This document shows positions 13,972-24,240 of a stretch of 64,000 bases of DNA, in pieces. Position 1 is the stretch's first letter; every line of letters begins with the position of its first letter. The notes beneath the pieces were generated by a model. It ran no database searches. It saw only the letters and a program-made list of their open reading frames with translations, and was not told where the DNA came from. The stretch spans positions 6,597 to 70,596 of the forward strand of contig DATLKF010000024.1 in the NCBI GenBank assembly GCA_035538515.1, read 5' to 3'. This stretch comes from Gemmatimonadales bacterium. GTDB lineage: Bacteria > Gemmatimonadota > Gemmatimonadetes > Gemmatimonadales > GWC2-71-9. The position numbers and the translations under genes are program-made.

Positions 13972-14032
13972 TCGTCAGTCATCGGTTATCAGTCGTCAGT
14001 TTGGCTGACGACTGACCACTGACGACTGACGA
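13972..14032. repeat. mirror array A: 4 x 7-nt units (TCNTCAG) + TTTGG + 4 x 7-nt inverted units (CTGACNA)
   Basis: Read directly: TCGTCAG TCATCGG TTATCAG TCGTCAG | TTTGG | CTGACGA CTGACCA CTGACGA CTGACGA. It is exactly symmetric about 14002. The outer and inner unit pairs are perfectly complementary. It lies between the TM2 gene and pntAA. Confidence 0.9.
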
Positions 14033-20678: not shown

Positions 20679-20888
20679 TTAGAGCTTCACGACATTCTGC
20701 GCCGCGGGACCCTTCTGGCCCTGCACGACGTCGAACTCGACCCGCTCGCCTTCCGCGAGCGACTTGAATCCCTGCGCCTGGATCGCGGTGTGGTGCACGA
20801 AGCAATCCTTCTCACCGTTCTCGGGCGTAATGAACCCGAACCCCTTCGCGTCGTTGAACCACTTCACGATTCCGGTAATGCGTGCCAT
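20679..20888 (-). CDS. cspA: cold-shock protein (CSD)
   Basis: The sequence is [36 protein letters not shown]1 (KGFGFI) and an RNP2-like motif are present. AGGAG lies upstream. Confidence 0.95.
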
Positions 20889-20905: not shown

Positions 20906-21103
20906 TTAATGGTGTTCGCGACGTCGTGCGGACTTCACCTTGCGGCGTGCCGCTGCCTTGTCTTTCCGTCGCCGTAGAGCGCCGGGGCTCTCGTAAAAGC
21001 GCTTCCGCTTCATGTCCTGAAACAGTCCGGCCTTGGTGATCTGACGCCGAAACTTTTTCAGCACGTACTCCAGGCGGTCGCCATCGCTCACGGTCACTTC
21101 CAT
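20906..21103 (-). CDS. rpsU: 30S ribosomal protein S21
   Basis: This is the internal ATG ([27 protein letters not shown]...RRRK...) of ORF 20906..21259. The product is 65 aa, the typical S21 length. Confidence 0.9.
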
Positions 21104-21205
21104 GATCGCTCCGTGTGAAAGCCCCCCCAAGCCCCAGAAACGAAACGACCCGGGCGGTAGCCCAGGTCCTATCGACAGTCTCTGGTTCGTTATCGCTCGC
21201 GGAAG

Positions 21206-21234
21206 ATCATCGCTTGGTGGCCCGGATTTGTCAA
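21206..21234 (-). promoter_or_regulatory. candidate sigma70-type promoter for rpsU-cspA
   Basis: On the minus strand: TTGACA (21234-21229), a 17-nt spacer, then GATGAT (21211-21206). This is a pattern match only, and the promoter consensus for this lineage is unknown to me. Confidence 0.3.
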
Positions 21235-21253
21235 GTATCAGATCAGAGAAGTA

Positions 21254-21308
21254 CGTCAAGCAAAGGCGTCACGAAGAGACGTCGACATTGTTTCGCGACG
21301 TCGTTGAC
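21254..21308. repeat. array C1: CGTCAAG/CGTCACG/CGTCGAC units at 13-nt spacing plus inverted CGCGACG
   Basis: Units start at 21254, 21267 and 21280. The inverted unit is at 21294-21300. The array contains AGGCGTCACGAAGAGACGTC (21264-21283), which is 19/20 identical to 21454-21473 in array C2. Confidence 0.75.
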
Positions 21309-21332
21309 TTAGCTAGGCGACTCGACTAGGTT
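21304..21332 (+). promoter_or_regulatory. candidate sigma70-type promoter for the DEAD-box helicase (long leader)
   Basis: TTGACT (21304-21309), a 17-nt spacer, then TAGGTT (21327-21332). This would give a leader of about 230 nt. Pattern match only. Confidence 0.3.
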
Positions 21333-21342
21333 ACGGCCACGA

Positions 21343-21433
21343 GTTTCGAGAACCGCGAGCTGGCATCCTTCCGAAGGACGGTCCCGCTCAGGAGCGGGCC
21401 TCACATCTGCAGGCTCATCCGTAGGTTCGAAAC
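21343..21433 (+). promoter_or_regulatory. predicted structured RNA segment in the cold-shock intergenic region
   Basis: A closing stem, GTTTCGA(GA)ACC at 21343-21354 paired with GGTTCGAAAC at 21424-21433, encloses two hairpins. These are TCCTT-CCG-AAGGA (21366-21378) and CCCGCT-CAGG-AGCGGG (21383-21398). Paired by eye, not folded computationally. Confidence 0.3.
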
Positions 21434-21443
21434 AACGATAAAC

Positions 21444-21557
21444 CGTCGCGAATAGGCGTCACGAAAAGACGTCACGGGACGGCGTCACGGACCACCGTAT
21501 TACGGTTCTCCGTGACGGTCTTCCGTGACGTCTTTCTCGTGACGTCGTTCCGCGACG
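21444..21557. repeat. mirror array C2: 4 x 13-nt units (CGTC[G/A]CG core) + palindromic centre ACCGTA-T-TACGGT + 4 inverted units
   Basis: Left cores start at 21444, 21457, 21470 and 21483. Right cores (CGTGACG/CGCGACG) start at 21511, 21524, 21538 and 21551. The array is symmetric about 21500. It ends 5 nt before GAGGAG (21563-21568) and the ATG at 21572. Confidence 0.9.
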
Positions 21558-21571
21558 TAGTGAGGAGTAGT

Positions 21572-22786
21572 ATGTCGTTTCATTCCCTGGGGCTCGCCCC
21601 GGAGTTGTTACGTGCCGTAGCCGACGAAGGCTACGAGCATCCCACCCCCATTCAGCAGGAAGCGATTCCGCTCGCGCTCGCGGGGCGCGATCTCATCGGA
21701 TCGGCGCAGACCGGCACCGGCAAGACCGCCGCCTTCATGCTGCCGATCCTGCAGCGCCTATCGCGCAACGACGCCACGGACGTGCTGCGGGCGCTCATCC
21801 TGGTCCCCACACGCGAGCTCGCCGAGCAAGTGCTGCAGAGCGCCCGTGCGTACGGGCGGCACCTCGAGGTCAGCGCGGTCGCGATCTACGGCGGTGTCGG
21901 CATCGAGCCGCAGACTCGCGCGCTGGCGCGCGGCGTGGACATCGTGGTCGCCACGCCCGGTCGCCTGCTCGACCATATGGAGCGGGGCCACCTCGACTTC
22001 TCGCGGCTCGAAATACTCGTCTTGGACGAGGCCGATCGCATGCTCGACATGGGCTTCGCGCCCGACGTGCGGCGCATCCTGCGGGCGCTCCCCGAGGAGC
22101 GTCAGACGATGTTGTTCTCCGCGACCGTGTCGCCGGACGTGGACGCGCTGGCGCGGCAAGCGCTCGCGGGCCACGCCTCGGTCGAGATCGGGCGGCGCGC
22201 CACGCCGGCCGACGGGATCGAGCACGTGGTCGTCGCCGTGGACAAGCTCCAGAAGCGCGGCGTCCTCGCCCGGATCCTCCAGGCCAAGCCCGCGGGCCAG
22301 ACACTGGTGTTCACCCGCACCAAGTACGGCGCCGACAAGCTGGTGACGTTCCTCCGCCGCGAGGGCATTCCGGCCCACGCCATCCACGGCGACAAGGCGC
22401 AGAGCCACCGCACCCGCACGCTCGAGGCGTTTCGTAATGGCGCGGCAGACGTACTCGTCGCCACCGATATCGCCGCGCGGGGCATCGATGTGGACGGCAT
22501 CCGCATGGTGGTGAACTTCGACGTGCCGCACGACGCGGAGGTCTACGTCCACCGCGTCGGCCGCACGGCGCGCGCGGGGGCCAAAGGCCTGGCGCTCACG
22601 CTGCTTTCCCCCGACGAGTGGCTGTTGATGGGCGACATCGAGAAGCTGGTGGGTCAAGTCTTCCCGCGGGAAGTGATTCCCGGTTTCGAGCCGTCGGTGA
22701 AGCCCCTGCAGCCGAAGCCGCTGCAGGCCGAACAGCCGCGACCAACGCGATCAGTCAGGATGCGGGCTGGAGGACGCCGGCGCTAG
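21572..22786 (+). CDS. DEAD-box ATP-dependent RNA helicase (RhlE/CsdA-like)
   Basis: This is the internal ATG (MSFHSLGLAPELL) of ORF 21512..22786, 3 nt after GAGGAG. Motifs present: AQTGTGKT, DEAD, SAT, HRVGRTARAG and a basic C-tail. Confidence 0.93.
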   Translation: MSFHSLGLAPELLRAVADEGYEHPTPIQQEAIPLALAGRDLIGSAQTGTGKTAAFMLPILQRLSRNDATDVLRALILVPTRELAEQVLQSARAYGRHLEVSAVAIYGGVGIEPQTRALARGVDIVVATPGRLLDHMERGHLDFSRLEILVLDEADRMLDMGFAPDVRRILRALPEERQTMLFSATVSPDVDALARQALAGHASVEIGRRATPADGIEHVVVAVDKLQKRGVLARILQAKPAGQTLVFTRTKYGADKLVTFLRREGIPAHAIHGDKAQSHRTRTLEAFRNGAADVLVATDIAARGIDVDGIRMVVNFDVPHDAEVYVHRVGRTARAGAKGLALTLLSPDEWLLMGDIEKLVGQVFPREVIPGFEPSVKPLQPKPLQAEQPRPTRSVRMRAGGRRR

Positions 22787-24134: not shown

Positions 24135-24140
24135 GAGGCC

Positions 24141-24240
24141 GACGGTAGAAGACGGTAGAGGTCGGTAGACGTCGGCGAAGTCGGTAAACGCTGGGCGACC
24201 CGTTACCGACTGTTACCGACCCGTACCGACCTCTACCGTC
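24141..24240. repeat. mirror array B: 5 x ~10-nt units (G[A/T]CGGTAGAN) + 11-nt spacer + 4 inverted units (NNNTACCG[A/T]C)
   Basis: GACGGTAGAA GACGGTAGAG GTCGGTAGAC GTCGGCGAA GTCGGTAAAC | GCTGGGCGACC | CGTTACCGAC TGTTACCGAC CCGTACCGAC CTCTACCGTC. It fills 100 of the 126 bp between the divergent gltA and the PRT-like gene. Confidence 0.9.

Follow-up and report, generated by a model that had tools for sequence, protein, structure and literature searches.

The 114-base palindrome at positions 21444-21557 is one copy of a lineage-specific, dispersed family of repeats built from a 13-nt unit. The reading favoured here, at a probability of roughly 0.55, is that this copy is transcribed in the leader of a DEAD-box RNA helicase gene, where it most likely serves as the stem-loop in front of the Shine-Dalgarno sequence. 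The window, i.e., the whole stretch of 64,000 nucleotides that was analysed, corresponds to C24:6597-70596 of a draft genome of 3.52 Mb and 68% GC (G000), and the genomes compared with it are draft metagenome-assembled genomes. The features relevant to the helicase locus are as follows.

20679-20888, minus strand: cspA-like cold-shock-domain gene (Pfam).
20906-21103, minus strand: rpsU, encoding S21 (Pfam).
21206-21234, minus strand: promoter-like site TTGACA-17-GATGAT for the divergent rpsU-cspA operon.
21254-21300, plus strand: second, small array (CGTCAAG, CGTCACG, CGTCGAC, then inverted CGCGACG), adjoining the -35 box.
21304-21332, plus strand: inferred helicase promoter TTGACT-17-TAGGTT, conserved in position across the genus.
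21350-21428, plus strand: conserved structured 5' leader domain GAACC...GGUUC, in its type-B version.
21434-21443, plus strand: upstream half of a predicted clamp helix (fold prediction, G000 only).
21444-21495, plus strand: left (F) arm of the array, four 13-nt units with core CGTCGCG or CGTCACG and a purine-rich 6-mer.
21496-21510, plus strand: centre of the palindrome, with the tip hairpin CGTATTACGG.
21511-21557, plus strand: right (R) arm, four units with a pyrimidine-rich 6-mer followed by core CGTGACG or CGCGACG.
21562-21574, plus strand: Shine-Dalgarno sequence GAGGAG and helicase ATG, the former within a 12-nt internal loop of the predicted fold.
21572-22786, plus strand: DEAD-box RNA helicase gene, 404 aa (Pfam DEAD/Helicase_C, orthologues).

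The original prediction described mirrored CGTC[G/A]CG units, and the sequence as well as a repeat search confirm a four-plus-four inverted array, the latter returning a direct family at a spacing of 13 together with 35-nt inverted arms that are 83% complementary. The F cores CGTCGCG, CGTCACG, CGTCACG and CGTCACG start at 21444, 21457, 21470 and 21483, hence at exactly 13 nt from each other, while the R cores, CGTGACG three times and then CGCGACG, are found at 21511, 21524, 21538 and 21551 with spacings of 13, 14 and 13 nt. Both arms flank the sequence ACCGTA-T-TACGGT, and CCGTA..TACGG-like centres are present in other copies of the family as well. The unit can be written as CGTCACG plus NARAGA and is devoid of G-tracts, its constant part being GACG-YCTYT in R orientation or ARAGR-CGTC in F orientation. 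Only the 4 nt TAGT separate the end of the R arm at 21557 from GAGGAG at 21562-21567, which is followed by the ATG at 21572. The proposal that a transcript would form a hairpin of about 50 bp is borne out by the predicted fold of the array RNA at -85.6 kcal/mol, compared with a mean of -51.9 for dinucleotide shuffles (z = -9.07), none of 200 shuffles being as low. Likewise, the open reading frame starting at 21512 is an upstream extension of the helicase frame and had rightly been taken for an artefact, since every orthologue begins at the ATG (M-S/P-F..LGL) and diverges upstream of it. A search for related loci among genome contigs gave distant helicases only, with an identity of about 50-56%, which did not help with synteny.

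The gene context is also as initially described, with the helicase lying opposite rpsU-cspA, Pfam assigning DEAD/Helicase_C on the plus strand and S21 as well as a cold-shock domain on the minus strand. From sequence, the helicase promoter would comprise TTGACT at 21304-21309 and TAGGTT at 21327-21332, with transcription probably starting near 21339. As this plus-strand promoter at 21304-21332 is not called by a consensus scan, its assignment follows from conservation. In most congeners, a larger F-R array occupies the position corresponding to 21254-21300, and its last unit, CTTGACG, is the -35 element. Recent copying between the two arrays of the helicase spacer, considered because of a 20-mer identical at 19 of 20 positions, was discarded, the match being what is expected from arrays simulated with the position weight matrix (PWM) of the unit. 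In many congeners (L092-L111), a co-directional gene ending in ..WWWDQEPKGVK* lies upstream of the helicase promoter, and the codons at its end, GGC GTC AAG TAG, supply CGTCAAG as the opening unit of the promoter-proximal array, which means that repeat units are translated there. On the minus strand, downstream of the TTGACA-17-GATGAT promoter and ahead of the rpsU start, the presumed 5' UTR of the rpsU-cspA operon contains a terminator-like hairpin with a U-tract (GACCUGGGCUACCGCCCGGGUC GUUUCGUUUC) at 21147-21168, which is possibly an attenuator of this cold-shock operon.

For establishing the distribution of the unit in G000, arrays of at least three phased units were collected in a PWM scan, with the reversed genome as control. 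While the latter gave none, 33 phased arms were obtained from the genome at about 22 loci, 10-11 of which are paired and about 10 one-armed, and all pairs run F then R without a single R-to-F pair. With gene borders taken from codon-model gene calls, on which the array positions depend, the distance from a preceding stop codon is 2-25 nt for 7 of the 11 pairs. Two pairs, on C28 and C7, lie between convergent genes, a third on C19 is located in the divergent spacer of an ECF sigma gene and a VIT1 gene, and on C42 an array occupies the interval between a tRNA-Thr and tuf, 15 nt away from the tRNA and 25 nt away from the tuf start codon. ARAGORN confirms two of the three tRNA-adjacent arrays that had been called by eye (C10 and C42), not the one at C13:35937. 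Beside this one-armed array, a stretch at C13:35980-36030 looks like a tRNA 3' half (GGTCAGTGGTTCAACTCCACTCAGGCCCA, minus strand); it is absent from the ARAGORN calls and might represent a fragment of a tRNA or an ancient integration site. Among the ten one-armed arrays, six are in F orientation just after the 3' end of a gene or tRNA and one or two speak against such a rule, which is only suggestive of a preference.

The genes next to the arrays differ widely in function, translation being modestly represented (rpsU-cspA, tuf, rpsT, infA), and a regulon of translation or cold-shock genes was rejected because the majority of the neighbours are unrelated. The same genome-wide census excludes an element specific to the helicase leader. 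Transcription-factor operators serving a coherent regulon do not fit the sites between convergent genes and after stop codons or tRNAs, nor the mixed neighbours. A general promoter module was rejected too, because a -10-like hexamer follows at the right distance after just 4 of 28 arms; among the arrays, only the promoter-proximal one of the helicase locus overlaps a -35 box.

In the wider comparison, matches to the strict CGTCACG pattern came from the genus alone, with 18 of 25 genomes versus none of 16 in sister families, and the reversed control of the three-unit pattern gave no match in these 41 genomes. With the variable triplet left free (anchor GACG-YCTYT, period 13), the family is detected in 13 of 78 sampled genera, again with zero matches in the controls. 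Preferred cores vary by lineage, being CGTGACG in G000 and G008, CTTGACG or CTCGACG in G042, G151 and G097, and TTCGACG in G116 and G187. G024 has CGTCGAG and G000 has CGTCACG both in the helicase leader and at the tRNA-tuf junction; hence, the core variant is a property of the genome and not of the locus, as two unlinked orthologous sites bear the same core. Occupancy of the junctions differs between species: at the convergent rpsT junction, about 11 species have 13-nt arrays of 2-5 units per arm, about six have stop codons only 1-10 nt apart and two possess a GTAG-type REP, and the tRNA-tuf junction bears 13-nt arrays, mirror arrays of 7-8-nt units or nothing. Beyond the 13-nt unit, Tandem Repeats Finder combined with a test for an inverted partner revealed 152 tandem arrays with an adjacent inverted copy (periods 7, 8 and 10), compared with one in the control. 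After merging, about 103 loci are left, which draw on a few common units instead of one unit per locus, for example, AACGCGG found 50 times. The 13-nt family belongs to a broader class of junction palindromes with tandem-repeat arms, amounting to about 100 mirror arrays with units of 7-10 nt.

In 21 genomes of the genus, the helicase loci share the promoter TTGACK-N17-TAGnnT and a 5' domain delimited by GAACC and GGUUC, which comprises about 80-100 nt (GAACC..GAGCUGGCAUCC..CCCGCUCAGG..GGUUC; loci L114-L133 and L187-L199 as well as 21350-21428 of the window). With a covariance model of this domain, 29 of the 151 genomes of the order give a match, always a single copy, corresponding to 17 of 63 genera, all within one family, and the helicase follows downstream in every model match inspected. 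The model alignment is 96% paired versus at most 54% in slid controls, five pairs have changed on both sides, and none of 500 shuffles reaches the observed covariation score. The 3' half of the domain exists in at least three lineage-specific versions. A search of Rfam with 21100-21600 gave no match at E ≤ 10, and a known RNA family was accordingly rejected for the helicase leader; the sole nearby match, to cspA and over the cspA gene, is sub-threshold at 22 bits compared with the gathering score of 78 bits. Single-copy, family-wide and without an Rfam match, the 5' leader domain is a candidate for a new cis-regulatory RNA.

Between this domain and the Shine-Dalgarno sequence, a hairpin is predicted in every leader examined. 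Its common form, type A, is a GC-rich stem of 18-20 bp with compensatory changes at six pairs. Mirror arrays of the 13-nt unit fill the slot in G000, G024, G116 and G207 and, in degenerate form, in G011 and G057, i.e., in six genomes from three genera, all of which carry the type-B version of the 5' domain, and in G128 the slot is taken by a mirror array of a 7-nt unit. The slot hairpin of G000 has the most stable predicted fold among 34 distinct slots (-81 versus a median of -39 kcal/mol). In addition, arm lengths of the arrays are balanced, with a mean |nF-nR| of 0.46 compared with 0.82 under permutation (p = 0.002), which argues that hairpin symmetry matters. The conserved slot, the compensation in type A, the persistence of the array together with the type-B domain over three genera and the balanced arms thus speak for a hairpin being needed at this point of the leader, which in G000 is supplied by the array. 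Regarding the original placement of the array in the helicase leader, the conserved promoter and 5' domain make it very probable that the array is transcribed as part of that leader, but the notion of a device specific to the helicase is not tenable, as about 20 unrelated junctions bear such arrays too and a different hairpin takes this place in 18 of the 21 leaders compared within the genus.

According to the favoured reading, transcription would be driven by the conserved promoter, some 230 nt before the ATG, and the array would occupy the hairpin slot between the family-wide 5' domain and the ribosome-binding site of the helicase, where a very stable RNA hairpin would set the structural context of the Shine-Dalgarno sequence and the AUG. 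The hairpin may also be a pause or attenuator site, or a site of 5' stabilisation or processing, so that its specific activity might be attenuation or stabilisation, and the 13-nt build would reflect the repeat family of the genome and not helicase-specific regulation. Efficient termination at the arrays is unlikely, because both the helicase and tuf must be transcribed through their own arrays. A consensus terminator scan flags part of the small array only (21265-21283), not the large one, the U/pyrimidine-rich 3' arm lies inside the stem and the full array hairpin is followed by UAGUGAGGAG. Dispersed palindromic repeats are common, and the reason for their positions is rarely clear. Here, a fixed position in a leader and at least two other junctions are filled by unrelated hairpins in different species, among them palindromes with tandem arrays as arms, and such interchangeable fillers distinguish the hairpin as a conserved requirement from whatever sequence provides it.

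Further constraints on the arrays bear on both RNA and DNA. At all ten loci considered of the 13-nt family, the arm rich in purines comes first (5') and the pyrimidine/U-rich one second (3'), on both strands, and the loci with short units show the same bias (83 versus 17 with the purine-rich arm 5', p = 1e-11). Transcripts of either strand would therefore carry a purine-rich arm and then a pyrimidine/U-rich arm, a chirality that fits a transcript-level logic in both directions. The longest word shared between loci is 20 nt, compared with 20.1 nt in the unit-PWM simulation; hence, the copies are old, yet they have retained the unit consensus, and recent transposition or copy-and-paste between loci is rejected, as shared words are no longer than in simulated arrays. 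Mirrored spacers are not more complementary than random pairs of F and R spacers (2.6 versus 2.48 of 6 positions, p = 0.54), and pairing of the arms results from the unit consensus that each of them follows. That the arms are recent inverted duplicates, or are held together by compensatory evolution, was rejected, complementarity of the mirrored spacers being that of random pairs. Stability of the predicted RNA shows no bias towards sense over antisense (n = 78, p = 0.36; n = 6 for the 13-nt family), hence no wobble signature, and RNA-specific selection in this form was likewise rejected.

Several of these observations would equally be expected if the arrays acted as DNA, the alternative already raised at the outset in the form of a protein-binding platform. 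A lineage-specific protein would then recognise each 13-bp unit (CGTC, variable triplet and purine-rich spacer), and the arrays would be operators, roadblocks or insulators at gene borders, with hairpin potential as a mere by-product of convergent sites. We consider this possible, though improbable. In its favour are the core and spacer consensus kept in copies that share nothing else, the mirrored spacers without specific complementarity and the RNA stability without strand asymmetry, as well as one-armed arrays, which are unable to form hairpins and nevertheless keep core and phase, and the genome-specific cores common to unlinked loci together with their lineage preferences. Moreover, units are phased with the helicase promoter and include its -35 (CTTGACG), and in many species a unit is found in the promoter spacer. 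Conservation of the units, genome-wide core variants and one-armed arrays are indeed not explained by structure, which leaves room for a factor reading the sequence. The operator role, however, does not fit arrays between convergent stop codons or inside a 5' UTR, nor slots that in other species hold plain hairpins or unrelated arrays of 7-10-nt units. Besides, the period of 13 bp differs from the helical repeat, balanced arms are not required of independent binding sites, and a candidate protein is lacking.

Somewhat less probable again is that the arrays are selfish or neutral filler of junctions, expanding by slippage or some mobilising activity wherever hairpins are tolerated, so that the leader copy would have replaced an older hairpin without adding anything of its own. 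This would readily account for the presence/absence polymorphism at the rpsT junction, the interchangeable slot fillers, unit numbers differing between close species and the slightly higher similarity of adjacent units (p = 0.025). It is less easily reconciled with old copies that keep the unit consensus, with a strict chirality and balanced arms, both of which indicate constraint, or with the linkage of the array type to type-B leaders over six genomes and three genera. Neither were target-site duplications seen in filled versus empty sites, and the palindrome found beside the RAYT genes is another one.

Doubtful to about the same degree is a further-reaching proposal, in which the arrays are recognition sites of an undescribed trans-acting protein or RNA factor that reads CGTC-NNN-purine, co-evolves in specificity genome-wide and has roles both at gene borders and in tuning the helicase. 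The specificities would be CGTCACG in G000, CGTCGAG in G024 and CGTCGAA in G116. Conserved units in old copies, concerted cores and strict chirality are not needed by a purely structural element, and a cognate factor is a testable way to account for them. If true, chiral border arrays would be register-tolerant, bidirectional elements of transcript boundaries or attenuation, and in the helicase leader, read-through or translation of the cold-shock helicase would be adjusted by this factor or by cold-shock proteins bound to the GUCUUUG-like heptamers in the 3' arm.

A cold-, CspA- or helicase-responsive switch, in which the hairpin blocks expression until melting, Csp chaperones or the helicase relieve the block, is very unlikely. 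The duplexes that DEAD-box proteins and Csps open are short or nascent; the array stem is predicted at about -80 kcal/mol at 37°C. The idea draws on the position of the array in the conserved and structured leader of a DEAD-box helicase divergent from rpsU-cspA, on the persistence of the array type in the helicase slot over three genera and on the predicted G000 fold, in which the AUG and codons 2-3 are paired with the segment 5' of the array (AACGAUA with UGUCGUU of the start region, 21573-21579, and AC with GU, 21570-21571). This clamp is, however, not predicted in G011 or G024. Furthermore, the probability of being unpaired is predicted at 0.82-0.83 for the Shine-Dalgarno sequence and 0.29 for the AUG, with the same values at 10, 25 and 37°C. 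Hence, simple melting is not the mechanism, and an RNA thermometer, for which folding at these temperatures had been suggested as a check, is unsupported and was rejected, as the predicted accessibility of the Shine-Dalgarno sequence and the AUG does not change over this range. With accessibility predicted to be flat from 10 to 37°C, the same arrays at unrelated junctions and another hairpin at the helicase slot in most species, the CspA- or temperature-specific device of the original prediction was abandoned. R-arm units of the family (GACGTCTTTG) contain the sequence preferred by CspB, GTCTTTG/T (PMC1904285), the G000 copy reading GUCUUUC, and this match is to be taken as a lead, not as evidence. 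Within the helicase coding sequence, a conserved hairpin spanning codons 7-12 at 21590-21607 (CUGGGGCUCGCCCCGG; CUCGGGCUCGCGCCCGAG in relatives) is predicted in every leader fold, and its stem bases vary among species with pairing retained.

Among described repeat systems, the convergent heptamer arrays of Xanthomonas (PMC4692102) represent the closest published description and the type that the 13-nt family best fits. Such arrays in Xanthomonas (GGGAATC) and Nostoc form convergent pairs capable of stem-loop formation, with a function not established (Rehm et al. 2015, PMC4692102), and are mostly intergenic, near the upstream ORF and dispersed over the chromosome. The family described here likewise consists of tandem arrays of short units, found as convergent pairs in intergenic regions near the upstream ORF and having the G/purine-rich arm first on each strand. 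It differs in its 13-nt unit with a conserved quasi-palindromic core of 7 nt and a semi-conserved spacer, which is not a G-rich heptamer with G-quadruplex potential, in its genome-specific cores and in the copy residing in a conserved mRNA leader slot.

REPs, in contrast, have units of 20-40 bp, each forming a stem-loop (stem 5-13 bp, loop 2-20 nt) with an unpaired GTAG or CGTC tag and a tail (PMC3733652), and a RAYT gene flanked by the repeats is required for GTAG REPs and absent for CGTC REPs (Di Nocera et al. 2013, PMC3733652). In common with REPs and BIMEs, the 13-nt arrays are extragenic palindromes scattered over gene junctions and operon spacers, in many cases joined head-to-head into larger hairpins, and, like CGTC REPs, every F unit begins with CGTC and a dedicated transposase is lacking. 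However, the 13-nt units do not fold singly but only as the whole array of four plus four, and CGTC is paired with GACG of the opposite arm in the predicted hairpin. RAYT-like PF01797 is encoded in 19 of 26 genus genomes, weakly associated with the arrays (Fisher p = 0.066). A REP/RAYT system was rejected, considering the units that are not self-folding, the paired CGTC and RAYT flanks differing from the arrays; a MITE was rejected in view of missing flanking direct repeats and copies sharing no words beyond the unit consensus. In G000, CCCCGGGC..GCCCGGGG palindromes, of which there are 26 copies, border the Y1 (RAYT-like) genes at C42:80.2-81.0 kb and C32:129.5-130.0 kb, and L094, L152 and L153 are further loci listed for a REP system coexisting with the arrays. 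At the rpsT junction of G009 and G013, a GTAG-tagged REP, GTAGGGGCGCAGC..GCTGCGCCCCTAC (10 copies), replaces the 13-nt array.

With long cold-shock leaders and RNA thermometers (cspA and deaD leaders of E. coli; RF01766), the helicase leader shares a long structured 5' UTR, a hairpin beside the ribosome-binding site and a gene of cold-shock type, whereas it differs in having no Rfam match, in a predicted fold that is insensitive to temperature from 10 to 37°C and in a hairpin that is a genome-wide repeat.

Two further kinds of array were noticed in the window. The divergent spacer between gltA and a phosphoribosyltransferase-like gene, at 24139-24240, is nearly filled by a mirror array of 10-nt units, GACGGTAGAR-type units being followed by inverse units of the GTTACCGAC type. 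As for the other kind, TAACTGA heptamers of Beggiatoaceae are described as abundant intergenic direct repeats and proposed post-transcriptional signals (MacGregor 2015, PMC4679880). Heptamers of this NNNCTGA type (TAACTGA, TGACTGA, CGACTGA) form 36 arrays in G000, including some mirror pairs, whereas the Beggiatoaceae repeats are reportedly mostly direct and not inverted sets, with a unit unlike the 13-nt one. One NNNCTGA copy is located at 13972-14032 of the window and has its pyrimidine-rich arm first, i.e., the minority chirality.
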